Positions 11,847 to 64,000 of a stretch of 64,000 bases of DNA are shown piece by piece. The notes under the pieces were generated by a model. That model saw only the letters and a program-made list of their open reading frames with translations, did not search any database and was not told the origin of the DNA. The DNA is taken from contig CM120642.1 in the NCBI GenBank assembly GCA_051362555.1, positions 7,440,001-7,504,000 of the forward strand, read 5' to 3'. The DNA comes from Lingula anatina (taxonomy: Eukaryota; Animalia; Brachiopoda). A program made the position numbers and the translations under genes. How positions within the stretch are numbered: position 1 is the first letter of the stretch; every line of letters begins with the position of its first letter.

Positions 11847-12327
11847 TTAACATTCGACCTGGCACGTCATCACCTCCCTCCAGAAACTATTGTCTGTTAT
11901 GAGCATTAAAATCGTTATTTATTATGATTCCGACATGCCGAGAGCGTCTTTTTTTCTCAAGGCATTTGGATAGAAGGGACATGAAAGTGTTTCTCTGTTG
12001 GGCTGATTGATTAGGGGATCTGTAGAATACACCGTAAAGAAGAGTTTTATGCTTCACTCGCAGCTCCACTCATAGGCAGTCAAACCCATCTAATTGAAGA
12101 TCAGTTCGTTCTTTATACATTATATCATCGCACATACATACAAGATAAGCCCTCGGCCTTTATTAGAAAATACTGGTACTTGAAAGCCTTCAATTTTATA
12201 CTTTTCACTCCGATCTATCCTACAGATATTTCCTGCTTCGCAAAGCCCGACTACGTCAGCTTTAGCATTTTTAATTCTTATTTTAAGGCTCTCGAAGCGT
12301 TCATCAGCGTCCGCGCTAAGACTCCTT

Positions 12328-23605: not shown

Positions 23606-23865
23606 CAGGGCCGTAGCCTGAGCAAAATGCCAGGGGGGGCAGTAAGCGGATACGAGGGGGCGATGCCCCTGAGGGGGGGTGGGGTGGGAGGGGTTGCCAA
23701 AACTGTATGTATAATACTGCATTCTGGTGCATTTTAACTATTATTTATTGCTCAATCAGAAGTCAGAAATTGTGGGTTCATTTTGCATTTGCGATTATTT
23801 CTTTTGCACCTAAAATTCCAGGGGGGGCAGCTGCCCCCCCTGCCCCCCCGGAGGCTACGGCCCTG
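23606..23865. mobile_element. 260-bp MITE with 5-bp TSD (hAT5-like)
   Basis: TIR CAGGGCCGTAGCCT; TSD ATTAA (23601-23605, 23866-23870); empty site in the paralogous copy at about 44660-44690. Confidence 0.92.
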
Positions 23866-25204
23866 ATTAAGAATAATTTTTATTCATTCATAAATATATT
23901 TATGTACAAAATATATCAGAAATTTTAGTATTACCTGAGCTCTTTAAAGTGAAACAAATAAAGATGAGAATTTTGAATTTCAAACTATTATTTACTATAT
24001 TAACTTAAAATATCTTTTAAGTCAACTCTATACTCAAGCATCATGATAGTAGCATCTGTGAGTAAAACCATTTTATTATATCAATAGAAGAACAAAAACA
24101 AAATTTTAAACATAAGCAGTAATTAATGAAGTCATAAGAATGATTAAGTTGCTATAGTTTTCCAGTTTTATGCAGTCTGTGTTGGAATTTTTTTCAACCA
24201 TGCAATTAGAAATAATTATATTCTTTTTTATCTGACTTGCTGATACCAGTCTGTGCCAGATACTATTCCACTCACAGGCCAGCAAGGTCTGAGAATCTAA
24301 TGGGCTGAATAAAAAAAAAAAAACCCCTAGAAGATAAAAGTGGCTTATTCTTACAAATAGGATAAAAAACATGGGATTTTCAAAAGGTTATTATAAATCG
24401 AGACAACACTTAGTAAGAACATTTATAAAATGAACTGGAGTACATGTTACAGCTGAAAAAATTAACTGGGCCAGTAAGTGACTGCTTTAAAGAAATTTCA
24501 CTGAAACAGTCCAAATTTTACTGGCAATCAAGTAGACTGTTATACCATGGCACTCAACAAATTATATATAGGTTTTGAATTTTTTTCCACCTGACAGTAA
24601 CATAAAATTTATGTCAACTTTTGAAATGTATAGAGTCAGTTAGGTGACTGAAAATATTTTAGAATGTCATGAAGGAGCACTATTAATTTAATGCAATCTC
24701 TGTTGGCCACTCTTTTCCAGTTTCTTCTCCAAAAAGGACAACTCAAGTGAGAATTTCTTCAGGGCCTTTTCTTCTGCCTGCCAATGCCATGCCACTCAGA
24801 AAAGAGAGAAACCTGTAGGTTAGAAAAAAAAACAACATAATAATAGCATTATGAACTACTAGTATCCATGTAGACATTACGGAATTAAGCAGTGAAGTTT
24901 AATGTGTCTTGTTATGACTTGACTGAAATAATGTTCACCACATAAATGAACAATTTACAACTAAATTTATGTAGAATATCAAGATTCATGATCACAAGCT
25001 AATAACCCCAAGAAATTGAAAGAAATTGTACTTATTACAAGAAATTATTTAAATCCGGCCTGGTTCCTACTCTTCTGACAGGACAAAAAGGGGATTTCAT
25101 AGAGGCTGGTTGCTAAAAGGAAAATGCCCAAGGTTGTTGTATTTTGAAATAAATTACAAGGCAGCAAAGCTGTCAAATGTACAGACAAAAAACAGATAAT
25201 AAAG

Positions 25205-33400: not shown

Positions 33401-34762
33401 ATCATCAATTTTTAATAATATCATGTATATTCAGAAAATGTGACTAGCAAAGGTCTTCATGCCCATGGAACTTCAAAGTGACACCTTGAATATGCCAAAA
33501 TGTAAACTAGACAGCACTGTGCTGAAATGGGTTTATTTCCATTTTTAACACTTTTTTAATATAAGATAAAATAAACAGTTTACTGCCATTTTTATATGAT
33601 CAACTAAGAAAATTGATGAGATGGGACAAATATCAATAGAACTGTGTCAAATGTCCAATTTCCTCCATTCTGACATTCTGAACATAGTAAATGATTGAAT
33701 CTGACTGATATGAGTTTATTTCCATTTTTGACACTTTATTACACAATACACGATAACAAGTTTACCATCATTTCTACATAATCAACTAACAATGTTGTAA
33801 AGATGCAGGAAATGTCAAACAAACACTTTTATGTGTCTCATTAATTAAATAATAAGACTGTTAACATGCCTAAGAATTGAATTTGAGGAAATGTGAAAAA
33901 ACAGCATGACTTCTAAAATAATGGCCCAATTATACTAATTTTCAAACTCAACCTGCATTTTAGTAAGATTGACCACTCCTGTGAGTTTAATGACAATTGG
34001 TCTATCTGTTTTTCTTATATTGTGTTTACAGTGTTGCATATATGCTAAAAAGTGAAAAAACAGCATAACTACTAAAATAGTGGCCCGATCATGCCGATTT
34101 TCGAACTTGACCTGCGTTTTAGTAAGATTGATTACTCCTGTGAGTTTCATGACAACAGGCCTATCGGTTTTCCTTAAAATGTGTTAACAGGGTTGCATAT
34201 ATGCTGAAAAGAGAAAAAACAGCATAACTTCTACAATAATGGCCCGATCATGCTGATTTTCGAACTTGACCTGCGTTTTATGAATATTCATCAGCTCTGT
34301 AAATATAAAGCCAAAAAGTAAAACTGCCCTCCACTTATCGTGTTAACAAAGAAAGTGCACGGCACCGGCATCGGCATCGGCGACGGCGACGACGGCGACG
34401 ACAGACGCAGGTGATGGCAATATGTACAGACACATCTGTGTCTGTACATAAAAATGGCCCAATCATGCTGATTTTCAAACTTGACCTGCATATTATGAAT
34501 ATTCATCAGTTCTGTAAGTTTCAAGCCAAAAGGTAAAATGGTTTTCCACTTATTGTGTTATCGGTGCTGCATATATGCTGAAAAAGTGAAAAAACAGCAT
34601 AAATTCCCTAAAAATGGCCCAATCATCCTGATTTTCGAACTTGACCTGCGTATTAAGAATTTTCATCAGTTCTGTAAGTTTCAAGCCAAAAGGTAAAATG
34701 GTTTTCCACTTATTGTGTTATCGGTGCTGCATATATGCTGAAAAAGTAAAAAAACAGCATAA

Positions 34763-42258: not shown

Positions 42259-45200
42259 ATTGTTTTTTTTTTTTTTTTTTTTTTTTGCGATTTTACTTTT
42301 GGTCTAGCTTGGATACGACAATTGACAATTTTCATGAGTTCCGATCGAAAAGTGTTACGCTTGTTACGGCCAAAAGCCTTACTGCTTTTTGTACTTTTCA
42401 AATGCAAGATTATAAAAGAATTTGGTGTGTTTAGATTCTTGAACATCTTGGTCGTGGCGTGGTATATATTGCATGGATACTGCTCCAATATTTCTTGAAA
42501 AAAATAACCTGATTTGTTCAGAATACCAATTTTTTACTCTAGTGTTATGGGTAAATGTACCATTTTGGCCTTTACCTTTTTCATGTTTAAATCTAAAAAG
42601 ACTTATCATGACAGTTGGTCATCGTTTTTCTTCTCGCCATGGTGGGTGGCTTTGGAGTGGTAACTTTGTTGTTAAAGTAAAGTGCTCAGTTTTTTTGACT
42701 GGAAAATTTTGCCTCCACCCGGCATATTTTCCATCATGGCGGTCTAACAGGAAGTTTGACTTCATGGCATAGTTATTTTTAACTTCTTCTTTTTACATAT
42801 ATATGTTTTAATTCATGTTAAACCTTTGAAAAAAGAACACACATGAATCCTGGTGCTTTTAATTTAAAGTCTTAAGGTTTTAAGTTCACCTAGGCTCCAC
42901 CAATTACTTTACCTGTTATCTCACTACACATCTCCCTTTGAGTCAAGGTGTGTAAGACACACCTTATTGTGTAAGACACCTCTATAATTAAGGGGTACTT
43001 GCTTCTCTACTTTAATTATACTTCACTACTTTGGCATGTTAGGTGGCAAGCTTGGATGTTTCAGTTCATTTTAAGAAAGAAGCTTTGCCTTGGTGGTTAC
43101 AAAAGAATAGAACTCTATAAAGGTTTATTCATTACTTGAAAGTAAATATTTCATCTTGCAGTGTTGAAACAGAAATTCTCTCAAAATTGATAATGAATTT
43201 TACATGCATATCTTAACACTACTCAAGTTTTTTTTTCTTCTATTATAGACATGGGAGAAAGCTGCATTGAATATATGAATTATGGTCAGGCTGGAAAAAA
43301 ATTTAAAAATGTCAATGAAAAAAGGAGGTCAGCGTGTCTGGGGTAAGTTACTTTTGTCATAATGCCTAAGATGCATTAAACATTCACTAACAACAGTACA
43401 CTTTTTAATTTTTTTCAAAATACCTGTACAACAACCTTGGGCATTTTCCTTTTAGCAACCGGCCTCTCTGAAATCCCCTTTTTGTCCTGTCAGAAGAGTA
43501 GGAACCAGGGCGGATTTAAATAATTTCTTGTAATAAGTACAATTTCTTTCAATTTCTTGGGGTTATTAGCTTGTGATCATGAATCTTGATATTCTACATA
43601 AATTTAGTTGTAAATTGTTCATTTATGTGGTGAACATTATTTCAGTCAAGTCATAACAAGACACATTAAACTTCACTGCGTAATTCCATAATGTCTACAT
43701 GGATACTAGTAGTTCATAATGCTATTATTATGTTTTTTTTTCTAACCTACAGGTTTCTCTCTTTTCTGAGTGGCATGGCATTGGCAGGCAGAAGAAAAGG
43801 CTCTGAAGAAATTCTCACTTGGTTTGTCCTTTTTGGAGAAGAAACTGGATAAGACTGGCCAACAGAGATTGCATTAAATTAATAGTGCTCCTTCATGACA
43901 TTTTAAAATATTTTCAGTCACCTCACTGACTCTATACATTTCAAAAGTTGACATAAATTTTATGTTACTGTCACGTGGAAAAAAATCAAAACCTGAGTGC
44001 CATGGTATAACAGTCTACTTGATTGCCAGTAAAATTTGGACTGTTTCAGTGAAATTTCTTTAAAGCAGTCACTTACTGGCCCAGTTAATTTCTTCAGCTG
44101 TAACATGTACTCCAGTTCATTTTATAAATGTAATTACTAAGTGTTCTCTTGATTTATAATAACCTTTTGAAAATCCCATGTTTTTTATCCTATTTGTAAG
44201 AATTAGCCACTTTATCTTCTAGGTTTTTTTTTTCATTCAGCCCATTAGATTCTCAGACCTTGCTGGCCTGTGAGTGGAATAGTATCTGGCACAGACTGGT
44301 ATCAGCAAGTCAGATAAAAAAGAATATAATTATTTCTATTTGCACGGTTGAAAAAAATTTTAACACACTGCATAAAACTGGAAAACTATAGCAACTTAAT
44401 CATTCTTATGACTTCATTAATTACTGCTTATGTGTAAAATTTTGTTTTTGTTCTTCTATTGATATAATAAAATGGTTTTACTCACAGATGCTACTATCAT
44501 GATGCTTGAGTATAGAGTTGACTTAAAAGATATTTTAAGTTAATATAGTAAATAATAGTTTGAAATTCAAAATTCTCATCTTTATTTGTTTCACTTTAAA
44601 GAGCTCAGTTAATACTAAAATTTCTGATATATTTTGAATATAAATATATTTATGAATGAATAAAAATTATACTTAATGTTTAGCACTGTGCACTTGTTTA
44701 CCGACAAATAAGAAGTGTTAGTATGTGTCAAAATAATCCTGAAAATAAAAAGGGAGATTTCCAAGATAAAGAAATTTATAACGAGTATTTAGTAAACTGA
44801 CATGTCATGGAATTGCCTCAACCTTTGATTAAAATTTCACTTTAATGCATTATGATATTAAAATTATACCGAGTGAGAGAAAAAAATACTTAAAGAAATT
44901 AAAAACCAGTCACAAAGCTTAGGCTCTATCTCAATATATATGTTTATGGGACCAAAGGGCAGGGGGGTCCAAACGTTTATGTATTAATATTATGCCCTTT
45001 GGCAGTGAGGACAGACGTTCACTTGAATGTCATTTTCACAAACCACAGTTGGGACGTTTTCTTTTGACTTATCCTTGGTGATTTTTCACTGTGTTGTGCA
45101 AAAGAAAAGCCATCTATCACCGACTCAAAAAAACTCATGGCGACCATCCTCAGTCACCACCTTATAATCGCTTTCTATGATATCGTTCTCTCCCAGCACA

Positions 45201-45439
45201 TCGTCCAGATAACTACCGGTGAAAAAAATCGTCAGCATACAGCGCCGCTTTGACACTACTGATCTCGAATTCTAACGCGAAATAACGCATATAAAATCAA
45301 TCTCCAAGCGGAGGAGAGCGACCCTGACGAAACCTTGAGACAGGAGGCCCCCCCCATAGCTAGCTCCGCCCACCGTAACAGACATCAGACAATAGAGAGG
45401 CTTGCGTGTAATCTCCTTCTGTTATAACTCCTTGATTAA

Positions 45440-46463: not shown

Positions 46464-47788
46464 TGCCTAATCTGTTTATAAGGTCTGAGGCTGCTTTGCT
46501 GTGGTGCCAAGTATGTTATGTTGACCTCCCAGCCCGACTCATCATGTTGACCTTCAATAGGAAAGATAGGTTGAATGAGATGCCACATAAGTTCAGTAGG
46601 CCTGTTGAGCACTTTTACTTTTTCCAATAGAATTATGCATTTTGTAATTTTTATACCATGATCATGTCCTGATACAGTACAATACAACCATTGATTAATT
46701 CATCTGTAGACAGCCCCCCCCCCCCCCAATAAAAAAATTAATATTCAAAATGGAAGGAGTTCAGTTTCTACAAAAAGTAATAACTAAGGCCAAATTGTAT
46801 TCAGTTGTATATTCAATATAGAATTTATTTTCATTTTTTTCACAGCAACTGTTCCCCTGACCGTGGATTAAAGGGCCATGATCAACCAATGCCGAAAATT
46901 GATGGACCTGGGCAAAGAAAACAAAATATCCCATTGGTCTAGTAATGAAAAGCAATTAACACTTAAATGGCATGTATACAATTCAAATTAAATTGTACAG
47001 ACTTTCAGATAAATAGGAAATGCAAAGGGTGTGGATTCCAAGATTGAGCTAGATTTAATTTCATTACATCCTCTAAAGAAAAAGCTGTTTTAACAGTCAT
47101 TGCTTTATTTGTAATAGGACAAGATACCTAAAAGAGTTGTTTTGATGATATTTTTAAAAGTTTTTCATTGCCTTTTTGTTGGCAGAGGTTTGCACTCATG
47201 GGATGCTCCCTAATTCAGATTTTAAACTGGGTTCCCATGCCTAGAACAATCCAACTGGATCGTTCTAACTCCATGGGAATTCACACTAAATTGTTATCAA
47301 TTTAAGCAGCTGTCAAGCCTACTGAATCAACTAGGGGGTAATTAACTTAATTAACTTTAGTGTATGCTCAGTTAAATACCCCCTACCAGCTTTAGTAGGC
47401 ATGATGGACATTTAAGCCGCTTAAGTTGATAGCAATTAGCAGTGAGAATCCCTTTGGAGACATATCGATCTTAAGTTAGTATGACAGTTTCTGGGAATGG
47501 TCTCTTAGTTTATGTGTAACAAGTCTGTACAATGCTGCTGCTGTATTGAATGGTATTGAATAACTAACCAATGGCATGTAGTTGAATGGAAGTAATCAGA
47601 TTACCCGAGACCAATTTTTTACTAGATCATGCCTTGAACTAATTTTCCCTTCACAGTGAAACCAATAATTGTTTTTAAAATATCTTATGTAATTTTCTAT
47701 GTGGAATAAATGTAGCTACATGTATAAATGAAGAAAGTTTGTTACTATTTCCTATAATTATTATACTAACAGTTAAAGGTTAATATTT

Positions 47789-47985
47789 AAGACTGGATTC
47801 CCACAGATTAAGATTGATCCATCTGGATCTACCTAACTCCCTGGGAGTTCACGCTAAATGCATTGCTGTCAGCTGAGTGTGCACGAAAGTTAATTACCCC
47901 CTTACAGCTTTTAGTAGGCGGGACAGACATTTAAGCTGGCTTTCCACAGGGATAGATTGATCTAAAATCTGTGGAAATGCAGTCT
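47789..47985. mobile_element. Small old MITE; related copy at about 47225-47505
   Basis: AGACTGGATTCCCACAGATT / AATCTGTGGAAATGCAGTCT; both copies share CTAACTCC and TACCCC...AGCTTTAGTAGGC. Confidence 0.55.
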
Positions 47986-48034
47986 AAGTTTTGAAATAAA
48001 AAAGATGCCTTTTACATGCACATTTCTCAGAGCA

Positions 48035-48814
48035 GAGTCATTCTATATAATTCTGGTATGCCAATTGTTTTTCTATAAATTTACATATCGCGTTCAAACT
48101 GTAACTGGATGATACACCTGCTGTATCTACCCAATTATACATAAAGGAAAGTTTGGCGTAGTCAAACGACATTTTATGGCGACAACAATCTCCAGAGAGC
48201 TTATTTAAGCACATGTGCATTCTGCTCATGCTCAATTGTGCCCTAGAGGGGTAATCTCCTTAGAGGCACATGTTGCTACTTATACCATGGGGCATCACTG
48301 CCTGGCCTCATTTTGCTTGATTCATTCTGTTCACGAGCATGATACAATTAAGCTACAAGTTATCTCAAATCTGCAACTGAAATCTTCAGTTCCAAAAATT
48401 TCATTTCACCTCTATGAGAACTTTCCAGCAGTTCACTCGATCTGTTGAAGCGTACAGTGACAGATTCTGCACAACTTCAAGCAAGGATCAACAGTACAAA
48501 TTGCTGACTGTTACATGAATGCGGTAAGTTTTAGTTTCTCTAGCTATTTAGCAGTTGCAGTTTACAATATGTTCTTTATCCAGGAGTCGCTTGTTTGCTC
48601 CGATAGCGGTCACTGCGACTGCACAAAGAAATTAAGGGTCCTTGCGTGTAGAATCTCCAGTCACCTGATGACATAGGCGGACGCAATGTCCCGAAATTTA
48701 ATGGAGTCATTCTATATAATTCTGGTATGCCAATTGTTTTTCTATAAATTTACATATCGCGTTCAAACTGTAACTGGATGATACACCTGCTGTATCTACC
48801 CAATTATACATAAA
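48035..48814 (+). repeat. 111-bp identical direct repeats 669 bp apart flanking a 558-bp core
   Basis: GAGTCATTCTATATAATTCTGG...CAATTATACATAAA at 48035-48145 and 48704-48814. Confidence 0.9.
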
Positions 48815-49345
48815 TACATAGTTATATACATACAAATGCACAGTTCATAGTACAAACAATCCATCAGTGAATTAAGTGCATCCAATGATATTAATTCTGA
48901 AATGGGTTAAATATATGCATATAAGGTACAGCCACATTATATAATCCATCAGCAAATAAACAAAAGCTCATTTAATGAAATAAATCCTGGAATAGGTTAA
49001 AAATAGAAATAAAGTACGGTTTAAAAAAGAACATTTATATATTAATATATTAATCCATCAGCAAAATTGCAAAAAGCACACCTAATGGCACAATTAATTC
49101 TAAAATGCATTGGTTTAATTGGAATCTCAAATAACTTGCATGAAAAAATAAAGTTTATATCATTATTAAAATTTTAACCTTTTTTTCTAAAAATGCAAAA
49201 TTATACCAAAATCATCTTTTGGTGATCAATGTTACCACTAAAAATAACTTCAAATGACAGCAGTCAAAAATATAAACATTAAAAAAAAATGCATGATTTA
49301 CCAAACTATACAAATTTTATGGATGGAAACAACTGGCACATTGGC

Positions 49346-49351
49346 TTTATT
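49346..49351 (-). terminator. Candidate polyadenylation signal of the Roco gene
   Basis: AATAAA on the minus strand about 120 nt after the stop; weak evidence in AT-rich DNA. Confidence 0.3.
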
Positions 49352-49470
49352 TAAATATCACACATACAATTTGGATTGTACTTTGCTTTAAAAAAAAGTG
49401 CATATATTATATATTTGTATAAATACATAATGTTTAAATACATAAATAATCTTGCATTAAAGCTGATTGA

Positions 49471-49806
49471 TTATGTTGCATCCACTGATTTTTTATTCTC
49501 CTTAGAATCGCGCTTAGGTACAAGTTTGTCTGCAATGTGACCTTGACCTGTGGTTTTCAATGCCACTTTGAAGTGCCACGTTGGATCCTTAGTACAGTCA
49601 CAGGACAATAGTGCCTCGATCAAAGCATCACATGCTTCTTGAGGTGATATTTCATCAGCCTTTTTAATTTCTTCCATCTGGTTTTCACCTATTACATCCT
49701 TCTCATACAAATAATCCAACAAACGAACTGGGTTGCAGATATTTTCTTTGACAAATGTTTTGTTCCTACGTAGACATCCAAACTCGGCTTCCCTATTATT
49801 ACATAC
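49471..49806 (-). CDS. Roco last exon: CARD-like death-fold domain
   Basis: LRRNKTFVKENICNPVRLLDYLYEKDVIGENQMEEIKKA...ACDALIEALL...FKVALKTTGQGHIADKL follows the CARD six-helix pattern; tttcag acceptor; TAA stop. Confidence 0.85.
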   Translation of the reverse strand, partial: VCNNREAEFGCLRRNKTFVKENICNPVRLLDYLYEKDVIGENQMEEIKKADEISPQEACDALIEALLSCDCTKDPTWHFKVALKTTGQGHIADKLVPKRDSKENKKSVDAT

Positions 49807-52800
49807 CTGAAAAACAGATTAAAATCACTTTCAGCAAACACCATGATGCTTCTTTTACATGGAAATGGAAAATCATGCGCACCTAATACTACTGCCACTT
49901 ACAACCAATCAATTTAACAATGATAGCTTCATGAAACACCACTCGAAAATCACTAAGTCTTCTTGTCAGTGAGATACTTCTGTCTTTAGTTTGAATAACT
50001 AACGTCAGCTTAGTTAAACAGGTCCTACGGTTTTTCTTAATGTTCATATAACATTAACAACATGATCAACACCAATTTATGTGCTGTCTACTGTAAATGT
50101 AAACATGACAAAAATGTAACTCATAGGCCCAAATTCACACAATGAAATAATTAATTGCCAATTTATGAAAAATGAAAAAAAAGGTAGAATATTTAAATAG
50201 ATTAGAATTAGACTGGTTTTCAAAATCAAGCTGCAATTTACAATATATTCATCAGTCTTATTTGAAGAACAATTGGTCAAACAATTGTTAAATGTGTTAA
50301 CTGTATAATTGCACAATGTCATAGTACAATATATGCTAAAAAAAGGAAAAAAAGGCATTCCCTTTTCAAAAATTGTCAGATAAAGCCGAATTTCAAACTT
50401 GATCTGATTTTTAATATTCATCAGTCCTGTTCAAAGACAAGAGGCTAAGGGGTTTCACTTATTGCGTTATCACTGATAAAGTACACTGTGTCTGCACATA
50501 AAAACTGGAATTAACCAATACAGCAAATTAGGCAATACCAACCTTTGTCTCCATGACAACAGCCAAAGAAACGTGCCACTCTTGACTCAAGAAGTTCACC
50601 AGCTTCAACAGATGTTTCAGAGAGCAGTTCACCTTGCAGAAGACAATGTCAAATCTGGATGGCCCATCTGGTCTAAACAAATCCTCAGCACTGGGGATGG
50701 TTGGTTCTGGATAATGGGTATATCCCAAAACTGCGTCCCACACTTCATCTTGCTGGAATGCGGCATTTAATTCATCTGAAAGTTTTTTACTGATAAATTT
50801 ATAGTTCTTCAATTCTTCTGGTGGTTGATATCTATGCTCTCTGAATTCATGTCGACTTGGACTTTGGAACATTTGTGGGTATGACTGACCTTGAAGAGAG
50901 GAATGCCCTTGACCTGGCGGGAAAATTGACCTTTGAACTAGCAAAGGTGACTGACCATGAACTTGAGGAAAATGCCCTTGAACTGGTACCTGAGTATGGA
51001 CTGGGGTTTCAACAGTATATCTCTCATTATAGACTTCCCTCTGTATAGATGTACCTCCTTGGCTTGCTGTTGATGTAGTTTTACAAGCATACTTCACAGG
51101 TGGAATAATCTCGGGGCCACCCTCCTGTGTCACTGTAGCAGTTCTTCGCCTGCCAGAACTACCCCCTCTTGGTGTTGACTCCTTCTTTGTCTTATCTTGT
51201 TTCATAGATACAACTCTCTTCAAACGCCCACTTATTCCAGAGGAGACCCTCTTGCTTTTGTACCTGCTGGTACCAGTTGATGTAGCCTGTCTCTTCTTGC
51301 ATGGGACACAATGTTCTTCTTCTGCATCTTCGGCACTTAAAACTCGTTTTCTTTTAGCATCTTTAACTGTATTTCTGTCCTGTCCTGTTGTCTCGCTAGA
51401 AGAAAACCTTCCTATTTTATGAACAGGATTGGGGTTTGGTTCTTTTCCCCTTCTTTTCAAGGTATTTCCTTCAGACCTTTTTCTACCAGTTTTTATGGGC
51501 TTTTTTGAAGAGTTGGCAGTGGTTTCTGAATTGCTGGACCCGGAGGAGAGTGGCAGGGACTTTTGACTGCTGCAGCAAGCACATTTAGGAGCATTTCCCA
51601 TAATTTGAGAATCCTGGCCAAAGTGCAGCCGTTTAGTTGGTTTAGAAGAGCCTGCTATTTTCTGTAAAAGCAATTTGAAAAAAAATTGGTCAAAAGTACA
51701 CATGAAATGAGGAAAAGAAATATAAATTTACACTAGAACCTCCAGCAAAAATATGCCTGAAAAATATATTTAACTATAACATTTATTTTCTTTAAATTAA
51801 GAACATACACCCTTTAGTTTCTCCCTCCAAAGCAATATTGACTCTAAAACTAGAGACTTAAATCACTTAAACAGTTTACAGATTGTACTGTTGGTTTTTA
51901 TTTCTAAAAATTCTTTAAAAAACAGTTTATTTTATACATTGATTTTATATGATCAGTTTTGTATACAAACCTCCTCCTTTGGTTCTTCAAACCATATGTG
52001 ATAATGTTCCACAGAAAATACACGATTGCAGGCAGAGCATCTTATGCAAGGACACTTCCACATGGAGTCCACCATACTTGGACTTAACTTTGCCCAGTTC
52101 TTACAACCTGGATCATAGATAAGACAACTGGTGCAAAGATTGGGACAATATAATCTGGCCACCTTCTTCAGTTGTTCTTCAATGAATTTCCGTGCTGCAA
52201 CATACAAATCTTTAGAGGAGTGGGGCTTGTTTGAATCCTCCATCTCAAGACGGATGCTGTATGGTCTTTTCCACAAGGTGAGCACAAGCATGGCAGCAGG
52301 ATCCAATTGCAGTCGCACACAGTTGGCATGTAGACAACCATTGTATAGTTCATATCTGTGTAGACAAGCAGCTACTAGCCTATGAAATAGACAGTTTGGG
52401 AAAAATTTCTGTTGGGACTCATAACATAAAGAAGTTTGAAGAACATCCCTATCTTGGCTGCAAATTGGTGTTTCCTCTTGGACCTTCTTGGCTTGACAGG
52501 GGACAAAATACTGGGCAGAACCAGACTTGCTGCACTTGGGATGTTTACTGATAATATCAAACTTCTCCATGACATGCAAAATTGCCATCTTGTTTTCATA
52601 AAGAGCAGGGTCACAACGGACCATGTTTCTCCAAACTGCATTGACCAATTTCTCATCCAAGATGGCTTCTTCATGGAGCTTATCCCAGAATTCATGTGTA
52701 TTGTGAGAGCGATCCTCATACCTAGGTAAAGTTATGATGGAGCGAAAAGCATTCACAAGCCACTGTGGATCTAAAATTACAACGTCCTCAAGTCCTTTTT

Positions 52801-55377
52801 CATCAAAATAGATCACCTCTCCCAAAGCATGAAGAAACACTAGACATGCTTTGACTTCTGTCAGGTCTGTCATGGATATGGGTTCTTTCCCTGCTAACTG
52901 TAAGACATCATCCAGCTTCATAACCTTTTTCTTGCTTTGTTTGCGCAGTTGAGACTCTAATTCTAGCCACTTGCAAGGATGGTCTTCTCCCCAATAAGGC
53001 TGTTCTCTGGCAATGTCCATTATACACTCTTTGAGGGCATTCAGTTCAGGATCATTTTCATCAGTAGCGTTGACCACGAAGTATTTCTTGTTATAAACAT
53101 GATGGTTGTGGCTGTGCTTCCCTTTCAAATGTTGCCGTACATTTTTGCAAAATGTTTCAACCTGGAAATAAGTATAAGATATCAAAATTTAGCTCAAAAT
53201 ATTTTCATAAAAAAGCACACTGCAGTTGGTTCTTCCTGCAGAAAAAAAGAATTGTACAATCAAAACTAATGTTTTACTTGGGTATAAATATGAATATAAA
53301 TAACAATTTGATCATGTCCAGTTTCATATTTGGCAACCCCAGGGTTCTACATAAAACAGAGTACCCACGTCAATGACACAGTGTCCACAAGACAATATTA
53401 CTACCATAGTCTAAGCATTTGTCAACATTTGCAGACAAGTCAATGATTTACTATTTACTTAATTCTGAAGTATGCCTAAGACAGGGAAAAAAAGAAAAGA
53501 AAAAGAAAACACACACACACAAATATAAATACAAGACTAGATAGCACCAAAATGTATACATCTACACACAACAAACTGCATTTATATAAGGTTCTAATAT
53601 GATGAACATTAAAAATTTTCATTATATTTACACCATTACCTCAGCTTCTGTAAGCTCATCTTTATGGGTACCAACAATAATCACAGGTGGACATTCACTT
53701 TCGTCCACAGTTTGACCAGTGGTAAAGCTGTGGACAGAATCCAACCAGTAGTCGCTGTGTTCTGAGGAAGACAGAATTGTCCAGAATTAACAGAACTGGT
53801 ACACAATACAGAAATTATGGAACTTCATATCTGAAGACCTTAAAATAAAAATTCATTAAATTTCAAATCAATTTACGTCATTAATGATTAGGGCCATGAT
53901 TATATGTATGTTATCATGTAAGAAATTTCAAATAAATAACTTTTAATCATATATTTAATTCTTGAATTTAAACACTGACACAAAGGATTTTTCCAACATC
54001 ATAAAAATCCATTAATAGACAAACATCAATCTTTACCCTTTACAGTCTGTGGCACTGTTTTGTCAAGCACTGGTCCCTCAGAGGACTGTTTGTAGGTAGA
54101 TATCACTTCATCAAGTTCATTGCTGGCATCCAATACCATTAAATATATTGCTTTTTGGGACAGGAAAGTTTGGTGAGTAGTGTAATACACATGTTGGCCC
54201 CCAAAGTCCCAAATTGAAAGCTGAACTTTGCACTCATCTCTTTCCACACTACCTTGGCTTGCAAATAATCTCTTTACTGCTTCATGGATCTCCTTAGTAT
54301 CTTCTGAAATGTCAATCTGATCAATGTCAAATTCAAGATCAGATTCAAGACTTGATGCCTGTTTTGACAAATTTTTATCTGGATTTTCACCTGACTCCAT
54401 CTCTGCAGAGTGTGCCATCACACAGGTTTCTGACTCTTGAGGTAGTCTTGAAATATTAGACTCCAATTCAGGTGCCTGGTCATGTAAAATATACTCATCA
54501 CTCAATACAGGAATGTCATCTTTTTCACTGCAAGTATCATCCTGAAGGCCTGTAAACAATTTTAATACACATTACATTCAATTTGGTGAAAATGAAAATA
54601 TCCATTATATATTATAGATTATATAAATTATATAAATTTTTATATATGACTATTATAGATGACTAAAATGAAATGTAATGTCAATTTTTTAAAATATCTG
54701 CTATCCACATTAAATCTTCTACTAGAAGCTAATTCATTACTTGATAATGTATACACTTATTGATGTGTACTGTGAACAATCTTAAAAGCACACCTGTAAA
54801 ATTCCTTTTATAATTTTAAGTCTTTTCACAAAAAAACTTACTTTCTATAATGGCTTCAGCTATAAGTGAATGCTTAAAGTCATCTTCTTCATCTGAAATA
54901 TGTATGTAACATATATAATATAGCTTGTATATGTTTATATTTCATGCACCTATTTTAAGAAATTGCTAATAATTGATACACAATTGTTCACATTCCTACA
55001 ATTGCAGCCCTATTTTTGGTTCGTGTGTGCGTGTGCGTGTGTGTGTGTTACCCTGTGAGTGTGTTTGCTTGGAGAGAGGATAAAATAAAACATGTCACCT
55101 TACATACCATTAGCATCCCAAGACAAACACCTGTTTATGGACACGGTTGATACATTAGGATCAACTTCGACGCCATTGGTTTCACGGTCATTTTTTGGAT
55201 AATAACACTGTTTCAGTAGTGCTTTTCGAAGTCTCGTTTTTCCTGCTCCATAGTGTCCCAGCACCATGAGTCTTATACGACAGACTTTACTTTTACCTTC
55301 CTTCAGAGCTTTGTGATACAACTTAAGGAATTGTGGTCCTAAATTTTGAATTTCAAATGGAACATTTGGACCATTTC
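49471..55377 (-). CDS. Roco-family protein: Roc GTPase-COR-disordered linker-CARD-like domain (7 exons, about 1200 aa, 5' incomplete)
   Basis: Exons 55377-55108, 54892-54842, 54549-54037, 53761-53640, 53161-51971, 51661-50543, 49806-49471; all six introns GT-AG with matching phases (1,1,1,0,0,0) and no internal stop. G1 GHYGAGKT, G2 RETNGVEV, G3 WDFGGQ, G4 THKD; COR FLHALGEVIYF...VILDPQWLV. Confidence 0.9.
50543..51661 (-). CDS. Roco exon: basic S/T-rich disordered region, Q/G/H/P repeats and an unassigned folded-looking segment
   Basis: 373 open codons; ttacag / gttggt; phase 0-0. Confidence 0.85.
51971..53161 (-). CDS. Roco exon: G5, COR-A, COR-B and Cys-rich tail
   Basis: FVVNA, QPYWGEDHPCKWLELE, VILDPQWLVNAFRSII, MEKFDII, YFVPC, LFHRLVAAC; ttccag / gtttgt. 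Confidence 0.93.
53640..53761 (-). CDS. Roco exon: G4 (not in the ORF track)
   Basis: EHSDYWLDSVHSFTTGQTVDESECPPVIIVGTHKDELTEAE; cctcag / gtaatg. Confidence 0.92.
54037..54549 (-). CDS. Roco exon: acidic insert and G3
   Basis: LSIWDFGGQHVYYTTHQTFLSQKAIYLMVLD; tttacag / gtaaag. Confidence 0.92.
54842..54892 (-). CDS. Roco 51-bp exon (not in the ORF track)
   Basis: tttcag | (D)EEDDFKHSLIAEAIIE | gtaagt; phase 1-1. Confidence 0.8.
55108..55377 (-). CDS. Roco exon: Roc P-loop (G1) and G2
   Basis: RIRLMVLGHYGAGKTRLRKALL; acceptor cttacag, donor gtatgt. Confidence 0.9.
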
Positions 55378-55998
55378 CTGTAAGATCAAACACAAATTCC
55401 TGTAAGGTCAAACACAAATTAATTAATTTTAATGCAGCACATATATATGAAAAGAATAATCTTTTAAACATGAAAAATGAAACTTGACAATGGGTATTGA
55501 TCATTATTTTAGCAGAAATCTTTACCTCATGTATTCTATAACTGAAATTTGCATTATGATGAAAACAGAGAATTTGACAGATTTTTTATTCCCTTGAATT
55601 CAAATTATGTTAAGTATTTCAGTATCAATTTGCATTAACTACCCTATGCGCATGTCAAATTTGACTCTTTACCAAAACATGCCTCTTTCTTAACAGAATA
55701 ATTGAGTGCAGCAGCATGTATACTGACAAATTTGTCATCTAGTGCAGATGGTAGCTTTTAATAGTTTTGTGAACACTTTACAAGAAAAAAACTGCATGGC
55801 TTCAAGAAAAAGAATTTAATCTGGCTGCTTTTACATCTAAAGCTGTATTTTAATCATCCTAAAAACCATTCTTGAAAGCTTGAGTAACATAGTTCTCCTT
55901 TCATACTGCTTGCATTGGTAGTGCAGTAAATAGGGTTTTTGTCAGTTTTGATGCAATGTTACATAATGTTTAACAGCATAATCACCACCAGCTTTTAA

Positions 55999-58900
55999 CT
56001 AGAGGATCAGAGAGGCGAAACCGCCTCCGAATATTGTACCACCAGCTGGAGCAAGCGCATTCGTACAGACCCCCACATACACAAAATAAGGAACACAGCC
56101 ACCAGTCTTGTGCTTGACAAGCTGTAAAAATGCAATCAACAAGAATTTTCAAAATATGCAAAAAATATATATATAACTAAAAATGGTACAATCAAAGTTA
56201 AGTTCATCGTAAGGTAGGTCAAAGGTCAATTCCAAGGTCACAGTAAATTGCCAGTATATGACTTCCTATTCAACTTCAATAGTAACTATGGGCCTATCTC
56301 TGCCAGTTTTGGAGATAAAAGGGAAGCAAAATTTGCAAAGTTCAGTTCATGGTGAAAAATAGGTCAAAGGTCAATTTTAAGGTCACATGTAGATTGCCAG
56401 TATATGACTTCCTATTCAAGTTCAATAGAAACTATGGACCTATCTCTGCCAGTTTTGGAGATAAAAGGGAAGCAAAATTTGCAAAGTTCAGTTCATGGTG
56501 AAAAGTAGGTCAAAGGTCAATTTTAAGGTCACATGTAGATTGCCAGTATATGACTTCCTGTTCAAGTTCAATAGAGACTATGGACCTATCTCTGCCAGTT
56601 TTGGACATAAAAGGGAAGCAAAATTTGCAAAGTTCAGTTCATGGTGAAAAGTAGGTCAAAGGTCAATTTTAAGGTCACATGTAGATTGCCAGTATATGAC
56701 TTCCTGTTCAAGTTCAATAGAGACTATGGACCTATCTCTGCCAGTTTTGGACATAAAAGGGAAGCAAAATTTGCAAAGTTCAGTTCATGGTGAAAAATAG
56801 GTCAAAGGTCAATTTTAAGGTCACATTTAGATTGCCAGTATATGACTTCCTATTCAACTTCAATAGTAACTATGGACCTATCTCTGCCAGTTTTGGAGAT
56901 AAAAGGGAAGCAAAATTTGCAAAGTTCAGTTCATGGTGAAAAGTAGGTCAAAGGTCAATTTTAAGGTCACTTTAAGATTGCCAGTATATGACTTCCTATT
57001 CAACTTCAATAGTAACTATGGACCTATCTCTGCCAGTTTTGGAGATATAAGGGACTAAATGGTATAATTTTGGAGTTACCATAATGTGCCATAAATTTCC
57101 TACAGAAAAAATTAATTAAAATAAAGAAAAGGTCATTTTGGTCAAAATTCTTGAAATGGGAGGTGCTCTGAAGTTCCAGATGTTCAAATTTGATGAAATA
57201 ATGTCATTTTTGACCACAAGTTGTCTGCTTTGCCAAGCCTTATGTTTTATTTTTCCAGAGTTCAAAATTTATTATCCATTACCGTACTGCACATTTTGCT
57301 TTCACCACCAATATGTACTTTTTGATACAGCGTAACTTTAGAGATAAAAGGGAAGCAAAATTTGCAAAGTTCAGTTCATGGTGAAAAGTAGGTCAAAGGT
57401 CAATTTTAAGGTCACATGTAGATTGCCAGTATATGACTTCCTGTTCAAGTTCAATAGAGACTATGGACCTATCTCTGCCAGTTTTGGACATAAAAGGGAA
57501 GCAAAATTTGCAAAGTTCAGTTCATGGTGAAAAGTAGGTCAAAGGTCAATTTTAAGGTCACATGTAGATTGCCAGTATATGACTTCTTATTCAAGTTCAA
57601 TAGAAACTATGGACCTATCTCTGCCAGTTTTGGAGATAAAAGGGAAGCAAAATTTGCAAAGTTCAGTTCTAGTGAAAAGTAGGTCAAAGGTCAATTTTAA
57701 GGTCACATGTAGATTGCAAGTATATGACTTCCTATTCAAGTTCAATAGAAACTATGGACCTATCTCTGCCAGTTTTGGAGATAAAAGGGAAGCAAAATTT
57801 GCAAAGTTCAGTTCATGGTGAAAAGTAGGTCAAAGGTCAATTTTAAGGTCACATGTAGATTGCCAGTATATGACTTCCTATTCAAGTTCAATAGAGACTA
57901 TGGACCTATCTCTGCCAGTTTTGGAGATAAAAGGGAAGCAAAATTTGCAAAGTTCAGTTCATGGTGAAAAGTAGGTCAAAGGTCAATTTTAAGGTCACAT
58001 GTAGATTGCCAGTATATGACTTCCTATTCAAGTTCAATAAAAACTATGGACCTATCTCTGCCAGTTTTCGAGATGAAAGGGAAGCAAAATTTGCAAAGTT
58101 CAGTTCATGGTGAAAAGTAGGTCAAAGGTCAATTTTAAGGTCACATGTAGATTGCCAGTATATGACTTCCTATTCAAGTTCAATAGAAACTATGGACCTA
58201 TCTCTGCCAGTTTTGGAGATAAAAGGGAAGCAAAATTTGCAAAGTTCAGTTCATGGTGAAAAGTCGGTCAAAGGTCAATTTTAAGGTCACATGTAGATTG
58301 CCAGTATATGACTTCCTATTCAAGTTCAATAGAGACTATGGACCTATCTCTGCCAGTTTTGGAGATAAAAGGGAAGCAAAATTTGCAAAGTTCAGTTCAT
58401 GGTGAAAAGTAGGTCAAAGGTCAATTTTAAGGTCACAGTAAATTGCCAGTATATGACTTCCTATTCAACTTCAATAAAAACTATGGACCTATCTCTGCCA
58501 GTTTTGGAGATGAAAGGGAAGCAAAATTTGCAAAGTTCAGTTCATGGTGAAAAGTAGGTCAAAGGTCAATTTTAAGGTCACATGTAGATTGCCAGTATAT
58601 GACTTCCTATTCAAGTTCAATAGAAACTATGGACCTATCTCTGCCAGTTTTGGAGATATAAGGGACTAAATGGTATAATTTTGGAGTTACCATAATGTGC
58701 CATAAATTTCCTACAGAAAAAATTAATTAAAATAAAGAAAAGGTCATTTTGGTCAAAATTCTTGAAATGGGAGGTGTTCTGAAGTTCCAGATGTTCAAAT
58801 TTGATGAAATAATGTCATTTTTGACCACAAGTTGTCTGCTTTGCCAAGCCTTATGTTTTATTTTTCCAGAGTTCAAAATTTATTATCCATTACCGTACTG

Positions 58901-60500
58901 CACATTTTGCTTTCACCACCAATATGTACTTTTTGATACAGCGTAACTTTAGAGATAAAAGGGAAGCAAAATTTGCAAAGTTCAGTTCATGGTGAAAAGT
59001 AGGTCAAAGGTCAATTTTAAGGTCACATGTAGATTGCCAGTATATGACTTCCTGTTCAAGTTCAATAGAGACTATGGACCTATCTCTGCCAGTTTTGGAG
59101 ATAAAAGGGAAGCAAAATTTGCAAAGTTCAGTTCATGGTGAAAAGTAGGTCAAAGGTCAATTTTAAGGTCACATGTAGATTGCCAGTATATGACTTCCTA
59201 TTCAAGTTCAATAGAAACTATGGACCTATCTCTGCCAGTTTTGGAGATAAAAGGGAAGCAAAATTTGCAAAGTTCAGTTCATGGTGAAAAGTAGGTCAAA
59301 GGTCAATTTTAAGGTCACATGTAGATTGCCAGTATATGACTTCCTATTCAAGTTCAATAGAAACTATGGACCTATCTCTGCCAGTTTTGGAGATAAAAGG
59401 GAAGCAAAATTTGCAAAGTTCAGTTCATGGTGAAAAGTAGGTCAAAGGTCAATTTTAAGGTCACATGTAGATTGCCAGTATATGACTTCCTATTCAAGTT
59501 CAATAGAGACTATGGACCTATCTCTGCCAGTTTTGGAGATAAAAGGGAAGCAAAATTTGCAAAGTTCAGTTCATGGTGAAAAGTAGGTCAAAGGTCAATT
59601 TTAAGGTCACATGTAGATTGCCAGTATATGACTTCCTATTCAAGTTCAATAGAAACTATGGACCTATCTCTGCCAGTTTTGGAGATGAAAGGGAAGCAAA
59701 ATTTGCAAAGTTCAGTTCATGGTGAAAAGTAGGTCAAAGGTCAATTTTAAGGTCACATGTAGATTGCCAGTATATGACTTCCTATTCAAGTTCAATAGAA
59801 ACTATGGACCTATCTCTGCCAGTTTTGGAGATAAAAGGGAAGCAAAATTTGCAAAGTTCAGTTCATGGTGAAAAGTAGGTCAAAGGTCAATTTTAAGGTC
59901 ACATTTAGATTGCCAGTATATGACTTCCTATTCAACTTCAATAGTAACTATGGACCTATCTCTGCCAGTTTTGGAGATATAAGGGACTAAATGGTATAAT
60001 TTTGGAGTTACCATTATGTGCCATAAATTTCCTACAGAAAAAATTAATTAAAATAAAGAAAAGGTCATTTTGGTCAAAATTCTTGAAATGGGAGGTGCTC
60101 TGAAGTTCCAGATGTTCAAATTTGATGAAATAATGTCATTTTTGACCACAAGTTTTCTGCTTTGCCAAGCCTTATGTTTTATTTTTCCGGGGTTCAAAAT
60201 TTATTATCCATTACCGTACTGCACATTTTGCTTTCACCACCAATATGTACTTTTTGATACAGCGTTACTCGAAAACCGTATGGAATACAAAAAAACGGAG
60301 ACCACACCCAGTGTTGGGCTTTACATGCTCTACAAAATGCAAAAAAGAATGAGTGTCTAGCATTAACGGTTCCCGAATTAGAGACAGTTTTCAGTTTCGA
60401 TATCTTATGGCCGCTACTCCCGTGAAAATGCACCGATTGACCCCAAATTCACGGAGATGAAAGATGACCCGAAATGTAACACTTTCCATTAATATTGTTA
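55999..60500 (-). mobile_element. Helitron/Helentron-like non-autonomous element with a central satellite (far boundary approximate)
   Basis: Minus strand: hairpin GAGGCG-GTTT-CGCCTC (56012-56027), 9 nt, then CTAG followed by T; the same end occurs at about 29585-29650. Confidence 0.65.
56210..60265. repeat. 146-bp satellite, 22 units in blocks of 6, 9 and 7, each followed by the same about 295-bp spacer
   Basis: AGGTCAAAGGTCA at 56361, 56507, 56653 and onward; spacer ORF copies at 57138, 58749, 60070 (periods 1611 and 1321 bp). Confidence 0.95.
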
Positions 60501-61203
60501 GTTAAAGGGACAAAAAATAGGATTTAAAACGCCTTTTTAGTGCATGGATTGCTTCTTTTTTAACTTATCTGAGAACAATTGCTATGGGTAAAGCATAAAA
60601 TGGCAGGTAAATGGCCTTAATCAATATCGAAAAAAAGAATCATATTCACCGTCCACTTTCGAACCCCGGGCGTCAGCCATCTTGACACAGTTTGAAATAA
60701 CGCGGCTTCTCGACTCAGATACGAGATGTAAACAATGTAGACAGCATGTCGTTTCGAAGGTGAGCGTGGACGTGAAGGAGAAGAGGAATTGCTCACCGAA
60801 TCTTTGCAGGTAAGCGAGTTATATTTACCAAAAGTACTTTTAAATGGGAAGATGGCAGTGGAAATCAAAATATCTGGCAGAGGAAGTTAAAAAGCGTAGA
60901 TAACTGTTAATAATTAACGTTTCCTCGGGTCAGCCAAATCACTAGCACTGGGTACGTACTACTAGACTAGTAGTTATATTATGAAGCGAGATAGTGCACT
61001 TTACCCCTGAGGTGTATAGGTCTGTAAAGCAGGAGGAATACCCTTTTCTGCTCAATGTGGTCATCTACCAGTACTTACAGACTAACCTCACACCATATTC
61101 TCGCAGGGGAATCCCATGAGATATACGATGTGACTCGAGTACTAGTGGGGTTAGAGGGTGTTCGTTGTACATCACGTAACTACGTTAACTTATTTGTAAA
61201 TTT

Positions 61204-61377
61204 GGGGGCGTCTCGATAGTCCGAAGGTTCATTGGTCCGAAGGTTCATTGGTCCGAAAAGGGGTAACATTTTCATCGATCTTTTAATCAAGGGTTCATTG
61301 GTCCGAAGGTTCTATAGTGAACATTCGGACCAATGAACCTTCGGACTATTGAACCTTCGGACTATCGCTACGGCCCC
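61204..61377. mobile_element. 174-bp MITE with 17-bp subterminal repeats and 8-bp TSD (MULE-like)
   Basis: GGGGGCGTCTCGATAGTCCGAAGG / CCTTCGGACTATCGCTACGGCCCC; TSD GTAAATTT (61196-61203, 61378-61385). Confidence 0.85.
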
Positions 61378-64000
61378 GTAAATTTAATAATATTGTCAAT
61401 GAATATGATTATAAGGAATGATTTTTTTAGCCTTTCAGAGGAGGAATTGGGTGATACACCCCTTCAAGCACGAGTGAAGAGGTCAGGTATGTTAATAATT
61501 TTAGCAGTATAACATGGGCGGATCCAGGATTATTTGAAAGGAGGGGGGACGGGGGGGGGGGGGTCCGCGGATGCAAAGCCCCCCCCCCTAGTTGGCGTGG
61601 GGTTCTGGGCCTGCTTAAAACTTTGGTATTTTAGAGGGCGAACAGTGCCATTTGGTATGGTTTAGCACTATACTGTAGTAAATTAGCTAGTCAAAATTCT
61701 AATTCCAAGTGGGAAATATTAGTGTGATTTTTTTACATCAGTTCTTTGAAACCATGTGTGATTATGTTATTTCTTCTTGTGGCCTTTATGATTTAATGCA
61801 GCTACAGATATTGAAATTTAATTTTATTTTTTTTTTGCCATAATCAGACTTGCTTCTTTATTATAAGCTTGTTATCATGTAGTGATCATGCCCTCTAATT
61901 TGTTGATTTTTGTTAAAGAATAGTGCTGTTATGATAATATCAATACATTTTTTTCTTTATAACCATTTTATGTAATTTTACTATTACAGTGCCTCAAGTT
62001 ATATCTGGAAAACTCATACCAGGACGCACTTCAATCTTACAATACTGCATCACTTTAATGTCGGTGTGACAAGTTGTGGAAAAGACTGCTACAAAAAATT
62101 TGCAGCGATGACCACGATCCACCACCTTTTACCAAAACCGAGTGAACAGTTTTATATTATAATGCCCATGTACATGTATTTAAAGTGACAAGACTGAGAT
62201 CAGCGAGAGCCTCAAGGCCTTTATTTTCTGGGCATCGTCAACTCTTCAATAATTTTATAATTTTGTCAAATACATCCAAAGATTCAATTCTAATGCAATT
62301 CTTGAAAACTTTTTTAGAATATATTTCAATGTCGAACATGTTTTTCTAAGAACTAGCCCTTTAGTAAATTAACAACATGTACTATCCAACTGTTATTATT
62401 AATTAACATATTGTTATGTACAAAGCATAAGCTGCAGTATCAATGTAGCATTAACTGGGTAGAGATTATGAATGAAATAAAAGTTTAAATATTGAAACAT
62501 CTTCTATTTATATTTGGCAAAAATAGAAGAATAAACAAAGTTTGCTACATAAGTTTGGAATTTGGCCAAATCATCTTTATTATTACCTGTCACATGTAAT
62601 GAATAAGACATACACAGATTTTGGAAGCTAGAATGCATAATTATTTTCATACTTATTAATGCCATCTTCATAAATAAGCCTTCTACTCAAGCATTCACAA
62701 ACTTTCACATTGTGCAGTACACATTATAGTATGATTACATTTTTGAGAGAGACTTATTACTAGCCAGGCTATCATGTTAAGAGTCTGATGTACATGCAGA
62801 CCCATGAGGATTGCAGATCAACAAATTATCCCCCTCTCTGTCAGCGTATTGACTCATGTGAGCTGACACAAAAGTCTCCATGCAAAGGGATGTGTCATAA
62901 GAAAGGACCAACCCAACTTACACAAACATAAATTGTTTCATCGGTAAGATATTCACACATACTTTTCCAAGATGTGCAGGGAATAAATAGAAAGGTATAA
63001 ATATTTCTTTACAAAATACAGGCATGGCTTCCCTGCATGAATTCTAAATATTGGCTGAGTGGAGAATTGAATACAGGCACAAGTGTTCACTCAAACCATT
63101 TTTGTAGGTCTTAAAAGAAATGACATGCAGTCATTTGCCAAATACAGAATTTTATGCTGTAACAAAGTCACAAAACTGCAACTGGTGATCTTACAAAATC
63201 TAACAACACACTGGTTTAAAATAAGTAGAAATCACAATATGCCACCAGTACCATATTCCATAATACATTTGATGTCATTTAGATTTAAGAAGTAAATGCT
63301 GGACCAAAATGGTTTATTCTCAATATCAGGCATATGACTTAGGTTTGGGAGGAAAGACCACCTTGACTTCCAATCTGTCTGCATTATAGCATAAATTCCA
63401 GTGCTAGATGGTTTGAAGTCAACAGATTATGCTTTTGTCACAGTGGCAAGATGAGTTCACTGAATATATCCTGTAAGCAGCACTCGAAAGTCAGGAAAAG
63501 TCTCTCACTATCCAACTCGTCCCCGCTTTGGACCCTCAAGAAAAGTCCCTCTTTTTTTGGTGGAGAGCCATGGAGTTCCTCTTCCATGTAAAAAACTCTT
63601 CTTCAGGACATCATACTGGCAGTTGCTCATAACCTTAAGGTCTAAAAAAGCAAATCAAAATAATAATAATAATAATTTATTAAGATTGCAACCCAGTGGG
63701 TTGAAGTTGTACATAGTGTTAAGAAAATTATAATGAAAATAAAGTGAATATTTGCTTGAATAAAACTGAGTTAAAAGACTGCTAATTGAACTTTAAAATT
63801 ATTGTACTTAGGATAAAAGACAACATAATACTATTGGAAATTTAAAAGTGCATACGGAATAAAAGAGCATCAGAATCTGTCGATCTTAAATTGTGGCACT
63901 TTGTTACTATTGTTTGATCTTAAAAGACGATTGGATTGATCAATAAAGATGTGATTCAGTTTGTCAGAGGATTCAGTTATTTTGTAAAAGAAAGTTTTGC

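Follow-up and report, generated by a model that had tools for sequence, protein, structure and literature searches.

The 64,000-nucleotide stretch of the Lingula anatina genome analysed here (contig CM120642.1, positions 7,440,001 to 7,504,000 of the forward strand; hereafter the window) contains, on its minus strand between 55377 and 49471, a gene for a protein in which a Roc-COR GTPase module is followed by a predicted CARD. It appears moderately probable, judging from sequence comparison, structure modelling and analogy, that this protein acts in innate immunity or cell death as an adaptor gated by nucleotide. The CARD probably occupies an interchangeable effector slot, which in paralogs appears to be filled by a domain of the caspase, Death, TIR, HEPN or glycosyltransferase type. 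The gene belongs to a large family of marine invertebrates in which pairing under the control of GTP probably turns on exchangeable immune or death outputs. Within this family the gene itself is unremarkable; of greater interest is the swapping of effectors across the family.

The spliced translation covers seven exons and 1,199 open codons, with the sole stop at codon 1200. All six introns are of the GT..AG type, measure 215-736 nucleotides (nt) and have the phases 1,1,1,0,0,0. The same exon chain is found in the L. anatina RefSeq protein XP_023932245.1 (LOC106170327), which matches the spliced product at 1,160 of 1,163 residues with three substitutions and no gap, and the gene model was already public in RefSeq before the present analysis. 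The UniRef name of this record, Ser/Thr kinase, is a misnomer, as the kinase domain is absent. Exon 1 of the model (55108..55377), which is not the true first exon, encodes the Roc alpha0 helix, strand beta1, the G1 P-loop (55258-55235) and G2. The 51-nt exon 2 (54842..54892, phase 1-1), which is the same in the RefSeq model, begins an acidic insertion in Roc that continues in exon 3 (54037..54549) together with G3 (WDFGGQ, 54211-54197). Exon 4 (53640..53761) carries a portion of Roc with G4 (GTHKD), and exon 5 (51971..53161) carries G5, COR-A (52978-52499) and the putative COR-B. Exon 6 is divided between a linker in its 5' part (50840..51661) and a hydrophobic segment in its 3' part (50543..50839), and exon 7 (49471..49806) encodes the predicted CARD (approximately 49800-49513), a short charged tail and the TAA stop. 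A word-based database search, which is weak evidence in both cases, returned only the gene's own record among 2,150 candidates for exon 5 and among 154 candidates for the CARD exon.

The gene is transcribed from the minus strand and spliced into the CARD exon. RNA reads from four of the nine listed runs (6-30% of each run) were mapped on 47500-54590, which takes in exons 3-7. First mates of runs X1 and X4 lie almost exclusively on the plus strand, which indicates minus-strand RNA provided that these are stranded libraries of the common type, and the splice between exons 6 and 7, from linker to CARD, is spanned by six reads in three of the four runs. The exon 4-5 joint is represented in a side table only, by two reads in X7 and two in X9 with one extra letter between the exons, and the exon 3-4 joint was not among the read joints listed for the four runs. 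The reads carry several differences each and thus seem to derive from other individuals or populations; a close paralog as their source is also conceivable. Of 186 variant rows 40 were listed, 14 of them exonic, and among these 14 the synonymous variants make up nine of ten in the Roc/COR exons (three of four in exon 3, six of six in exon 5) versus one of four in the linker. Both exonic indels listed, a 33-nt insertion and a 3-nt deletion in the linker seen in RNA reads of run X4, keep the frame. Purifying selection on the Roc/COR exons is supported by the variants listed, and the description in the first-pass annotation of an intact and expressed seven-exon gene of about 1200 residues, with an open frame under selection, is borne out.

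In the whole protein, Pfam identifies Roc with an E-value of 7.4e-12 and COR-A with 1.5e-18, and both align to LRRK2 chains (E 4e-12). The motifs G1 (GHYGAGKT), G2 (TNG), G3 and G4 fit the consensus of 49 aligned relatives and G5 aligns to that of LRRK2, so that the full set of Roc G-boxes initially noted is present. COR directly follows Roc, and residues 339-550 align to the Chlorobium RocCOR structure 3dpu. The earlier assignment of both COR halves stands for COR-A. Pfam gave no COR-B match at E<=0.1, either for the spliced protein or for separate exons; this C-terminal half, the dimer interface, may be present, as relatives align through residue ~625-687 and some of them have weak COR-B matches (e.g. 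P0003). The Roc domain contains a 118-residue acidic insertion with a net charge of -25, and the spacing from G1 to G3 is 180 residues versus a median of 173 among the 111 of 150 relatives in which both motifs were found; a long insertion at this position is, on these alignments, a family trait. As claimed at first, the 1,199 modelled codons contain no kinase detectable by Pfam or by a kinase profile made from relatives, and the frame ends past the CARD. No NACHT or NB-ARC ATPase was matched by Pfam in the protein, its nucleoside triphosphatase (NTPase) being the Roc GTPase.

A CARD-like domain had been placed where LRRK1 and LRRK2 carry their kinase; the domain is upheld by Pfam and by the predicted structure, but it does not adjoin COR, from which it is separated by ~375 residues. 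About 275 of these form a low-complexity, basic and predicted-disordered linker that includes a KRKR stretch and has no detected relatives. The remaining ~100-residue hydrophobic segment is possibly a degenerate death fold, a lead only: it gave an Atlas lead of 0.87 to Death-domain clusters, no Pfam match at E<=10, and a profile match that spans just 15 columns and was reached by 2 of 100 shuffles. For the CARD, Pfam scored 24.6 bits in the whole protein and 27.6 bits for exon 7 alone, against a cut-off of 23.9. When exon 7 was modelled from an alignment that included three family CARDs, the structure reached a predicted local distance difference test score (pLDDT) of 76.6 and showed the helices of a death fold; folding of the whole protein from its sequence alone gave no information (pLDDT 35). 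The first 30 structural matches of the exon 7 model include the CARDs of MDA5 (Z 15.2, root-mean-square deviation 1.8, 94 aligned), RIG-I (14.8), Apaf-1 (14.5) and caspase-9 (14.2), whereas death domains proper scored 9.6 or less, and the alignment of exon 7 with family CARDs was better than 100 of 100 shuffles. The last exon is thus predicted to encode a CARD fold, and the structural comparison agrees with the first reading of this exon. The four CARD scores are near ties and point to no particular partner. Caspase-9 was the first PDB match of a four-CARD profile and was not used as a partner, because that profile mainly reflects the three added CARDs.

Relatives of the gene are numerous, with 5,819 representatives at E<=0.001, of which the best 150 were examined. 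Twenty relatives that were looked up include nine from bivalves, five from amphioxus, two each from an annelid and brachiopods and one from a hemichordate. Domains were tallied by hand with Pfam at thresholds from 2e-3 to 1e-4, a few matches below the curated cut-off included, and the counts are lower bounds since part of the scans gave only five families per protein. Among these best 150 of 5,819, the slot after COR holds Death in at least 51, HEPN in at least 11, GT4 in at least 10, caspase in at least 5, TIR and trypsin in at least 3 each, CARD, OTU and kinase in at least 2 each, and DED in at least 1; in 61 of the 150 it was not assigned. A kinase occurs anywhere in only three of the 150. 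The top three matches are an Owenia Roc-COR-Death protein, an Owenia Bcl-2-Roc-COR-caspase protein and a Lingula Roc-COR-caspase protein. The Lingula gene fits the family in having the long G1-G3 insertion, the alpha0 helix, COR and a variable C-terminal death-fold or effector domain, the kinase-less invertebrate Roc-COR family being an operational description of the present analysis and not a curated family. The death-fold and immune context proposed in the first-pass annotation therefore agrees with a slot full of Death and other effector domains. The Roc-COR-CARD architecture is not new: such proteins are reported, in the available text, for Trichoplax (PMC4104024) and were found here in the mussel Sinanodonta (P0014) and in amphioxus (Branchiostoma; P0051, P0161, P0162), newer RefSeq models included. 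In addition, a Mercenaria protein (P0047, XP_053379695.1) has a CARD at residues 345-420 inside Roc, between G3 and COR, and among P0038, P0073, P0077 and P0084 Roc-COR is joined to inflammasome-type parts, either FIIND-UPA-Death (amphioxus P0038) or NACHT/nSTAND3 NTPases.

Core identity of the Lingula gene to kinase-less relatives is only 27-39%, and no close relative was detected for its linker and CARD. In a tree of the core with all 151 rows, different effector types alternate, and do so even between close relatives. The grouping of the three CARD-bearing cores as one clade was rejected in a tree of 30 rows picked by hand (log-likelihood 561 lower; approximately unbiased test, p 3.4e-6). 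These three CARD forms are therefore not one clade, a sign of gain or swapping on more than one occasion. The rows nearest to the Lingula gene are caspase and Death forms of Owenia and Lingula, without strong support for its position. At least two Lingula paralogs have a caspase after COR, namely P0005 (XP_013407220.1, LOC106171421), which has both caspase catalytic motifs, and P0030 (XP_013412607.1, LOC106175244), which fits just the His motif pattern. The N-terminus of P0005 resembles the Bcl-2 domain of Owenia P0004 (CAH1786849.1; local E 8e-7), itself the Bcl-2-Roc-COR-caspase protein mentioned above, and together these caspase forms may be considered more remarkable than the gene with CARD.

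If the Lingula protein is a nucleotide-gated adaptor, it would presumably cycle between monomer and dimer like the Roco proteins studied so far, and would thereby present one or two CARDs. With the same cycle, the active state would be the post-hydrolysis dimer and not an Apaf-1-like ring. Pairing through COR would bring two CARDs together, and the long flexible linker could allow them to reach a partner or to seed a CARD filament; the pair might then recruit a CARD-bearing partner, for example an initiator caspase or an adaptor. Initiator caspases are activated by induced proximity, and a dimer fits such activation as well as the existence of caspase-bearing paralogs, at least by analogy.

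Several observations weigh against the adaptor reading. The CARD is divergent, with 18-28% identity to other family CARDs; a PDB sequence search with it gave no match at E<1; Foldseek ranked the same CARDs at the top for the exon 7 model, yet with E>0.05; and the model leans toward a CARD fold because three known CARDs sat in its alignment. No sensor domain was seen in the modelled protein. Other roles are known for CARD proteins too, namely inhibition and scaffolding outside immunity. Read depth is low, 0-6x per bin across exons 3-7 and near zero in most intron bins. The splicing of the last exon to the COR exons, asserted at first, is seen in reads as far as exon 6, but the exon 5-6 joint between COR and linker is not among the listed read joints and the surrounding bin has zero depth, so that the COR-CARD link depends wholly on the RefSeq model, the splice signals and same-strand coverage.

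Among the alternatives, the protein may be a decoy or regulator, which forms COR-mediated pairs with the Roc-COR-caspase paralogs of Lingula or sequesters CARD partners, and so tunes signalling without triggering it, in the manner of the decoys cFLIP and ICEBERG-type proteins. The two caspase-bearing paralogs, one with both catalytic motifs, speak for this role, as do the absence of an enzyme output from the CARD gene and the divergence of its CARD; nevertheless, core identity to the closest paralog is below 40% and grouping with the caspase paralogs is not strongly supported, and we regard the role as unlikely. Somewhat less likely still is a non-immune scaffold in trafficking, the cytoskeleton or the nucleus, comparable to LRRK or Dictyostelium Roco, in which the CARD would be a docking module of a general kind. 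Such roles are described for characterised Roco proteins in the available text of PMC4104024, and the KRKR stretch of the basic linker would be compatible with them. However, the kinase, LRR and WD40 of LRRK are missing, and the variable slot of the family is dominated by death-fold and conflict-system effectors.

A further possibility, which we consider improbable, concerns the transcript: the region might be split between two transcription units, or its main isoform might lack the CARD, with read-through of exon 5 giving Roc-COR alone and a linker-CARD part that is separate or rare. The frame of exon 5, if unspliced, closes at a stop 15 nt beyond the donor, and by rough matrix scoring none of the other five donors is as weak as this one (GTTTGT); the unlisted exon 5-6 joint and the zero-depth bin point the same way. 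On the other hand, RefSeq joins exons 5 and 6, intron 5 is only 309 nt long with a strong pyrimidine tract and a matching phase, flanking coverage is on the same strand at similar depth, the zero-depth bin equally shows no read-through into the intron, and C-terminal death folds are the norm in the family. A decaying duplicate or pseudogene, which repeat-rich surroundings, low expression and a long tree branch might suggest, is very improbable and already largely refuted by the 1,199 open codons, the intact motifs, the synonymous excess among listed Roc/COR variants and the in-frame indels.

Beyond the adaptor reading of the single gene, a larger proposal can be made, which is speculative and rather unlikely. 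Marine invertebrates might possess a GTPase-switched counterpart of NLRs and the apoptosome, that is, an expanded Roc-COR family in which dimerisation turns on swappable outputs and to which CARD was recruited independently at least three times; the Lingula CARD form and the Roc-COR-caspase paralogs, one of them with a Bcl-2-like N-terminus, would then constitute a death or immune pathway complete in itself. Should the family serve immunity, it would be a large and mostly unannotated arm of invertebrate defence, mirroring bacterial AP-GTPase conflict systems. Furthermore, a kinase-free Roco protein with a simple output, either CARD or, in paralogs, caspase, would be a direct test case for which nucleotide or oligomer state of Roc-COR is 'on', a question that bears on LRRK2.

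The N-terminal part had been noted as missing from the first model, and this is also true of RefSeq, whose start is an internal Met at 55267, four residues ahead of the P-loop. The 36 codons upstream of this Met encode a helix and a strand conserved in relatives; therefore the true start is absent from both gene models. The first modelled acceptor is ambiguous between 55377 and 55399, as a 22-bp tandem duplication of the splice acceptor (window 55375-55420) provides acceptors in two phases, phase 1 at 55377 and phase 0 at 55399. A tblastn search with the 150 relatives, ankyrin- and kinase-bearing ones included, found nothing upstream of 55513 in the window and no LRR exon in the window, although 5' exons may be located outside it. 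An N-terminal kinase is unlikely by comparison with these relatives, of which one in 150 has a kinase before Roc. A candidate first coding exon of 31 nt (60650..60680, minus strand) has an ATG and a phase-1 GT donor that fits the 55377 acceptor, and lies in a CpG-rich unique stretch; this candidate has a weak donor (GTGAAT) and a competitor in another phase-1 exon with an ATG, which ends at 62587. If the candidate is real, the protein would have no sensor at its N-terminus and would resemble the 35 of 111 relatives that have the P-loop within the first 80 residues, some of which are surely truncated models.

A gene model with a neighbouring accession, P0002 (XP_023932244.1, LOC106159252), is a possible rival source of the 5' exons. 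It encodes an otherwise unrelated 716-residue protein with three ~85-residue repeats and a PARP14-like RRM, falls in the same 90% cluster as XP_023932245.1, and is similar in its RRM to the one at the N-terminus of a clam RRM-KH-Roc-COR-Death protein (local E 4e-8). However, P0002 lies outside the window and has no similarity to XP_023932245.1, and none of 4,296 candidates was a longer fused relative. The third member of that cluster may be a fused model.

The CpG-rich unique island extends over 60250-61500 and has donor-like sites on the plus strand near 60760 and 60810, a hint of a divergent gene. A 146-bp satellite of ~26 copies (56193-59986) separates the modelled gene from the possible promoter and is broken up by copies of a ~290-bp unit at 57048-57337, 58659-58948 and 59980-60269. 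On the other side of the gene, a short repeat at 47800-47980 attracts RNA reads of other loci to a very high depth, on both strands and with many loose ends, and an exact 111-bp duplication occupies 48035-48145 and 48704-48814. Elsewhere the window contains broken retroelements at 1004-12764 (RT RNase H, endonuclease and two RVT_1 fragments on opposite strands), a Myb/SANT-like open reading frame at 12432-12764, a dispersed 159-161-bp tandem repeat family (15382-16000, 29169-29522, 32342-32655, 33889-34762) and a ~2-kb inverted repeat copy with 88-95% identity (43403-45434 and 22891-25159).

In the openly accessible literature, no paper was found with the locus identifier, on a Lingula Roc-COR-CARD protein, or on the family as a whole in bilaterians. 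The pairing of Roc-COR with CARD is not new, being known from Trichoplax adhaerens, for which the available text describes at least 17 Roco genes with Roc-COR amid CARD, death, TPR, LRR, AAA and TIR domains and proposes that Roc-COR serves for dimerisation controlled by nucleotide (Civiero et al. 2014, PMC4104024); the occurrence of CARD and death domains in Roco proteins of Trichoplax is restated in part of PMC11378527. The combination is shared with Lingula, which differs in being bilaterian and in having its CARD at the C-terminus behind a long basic linker, the positions of the Trichoplax CARDs not being given in that text. Roc-COR with TIR or Death is likewise described, in the portions available, for Aplysia (PMC9334734) and for NG1/NG3 of the sea anemone (PMC5094078); in the available part of a bioRxiv paper on TIR, Roc and COR occur only among figure abbreviations. 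The core and the long G1-G3 insertion of the Lingula protein recur in Roc-COR proteins without a kinase from molluscs, annelids, hemichordates and amphioxus. The bacterial AP-GTPase (Roc-COR) conflict systems, according to the text seen of Kaur et al. 2021 (PMC8195603), also have a variable C-terminal effector slot, filled with TIR, caspase, trypsin, GT4 and others. The slot is alike in Lingula, whereas those systems are prokaryotic and predicted and have N-terminal LRR sensors, no LRR having been seen in the window.

Among the well-characterised relatives, LRRK1 and LRRK2 have a kinase and WD40 after COR, neither of which is in the Lingula protein, and the latter has the long acidic insertion in Roc. 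DAPK1 has a kinase and ankyrins at its N-terminus. Its Roc-COR is followed by a C-terminal death-fold domain and is without LRR in the text available (PMC6337361), an arrangement similar to that of Lingula except that the domain is a death domain in DAPK1 and a predicted CARD here. Apaf-1/CED-4 and NLRs combine an NTPase switch with CARD, as the Lingula protein appears to do; however, Apaf-1 and NLRs use a STAND ATPase, a ring and a repeat sensor, whereas the Lingula protein has a small-GTPase fold, a C-terminal CARD and no repeat sensor that was seen. The Roco proteins investigated so far alternate between a monomeric and a dimeric state, with no ring described in the part of PMC6337361 available, and a dimer is a weaker clustering device than the apoptosome ring. 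Consequently, the NLR/Apaf-1-like clustering envisaged in the first-pass annotation would be retained as an NTPase-switch principle and given up as a ring, and the Apaf-1 analogy appears true in logic, not in architecture.

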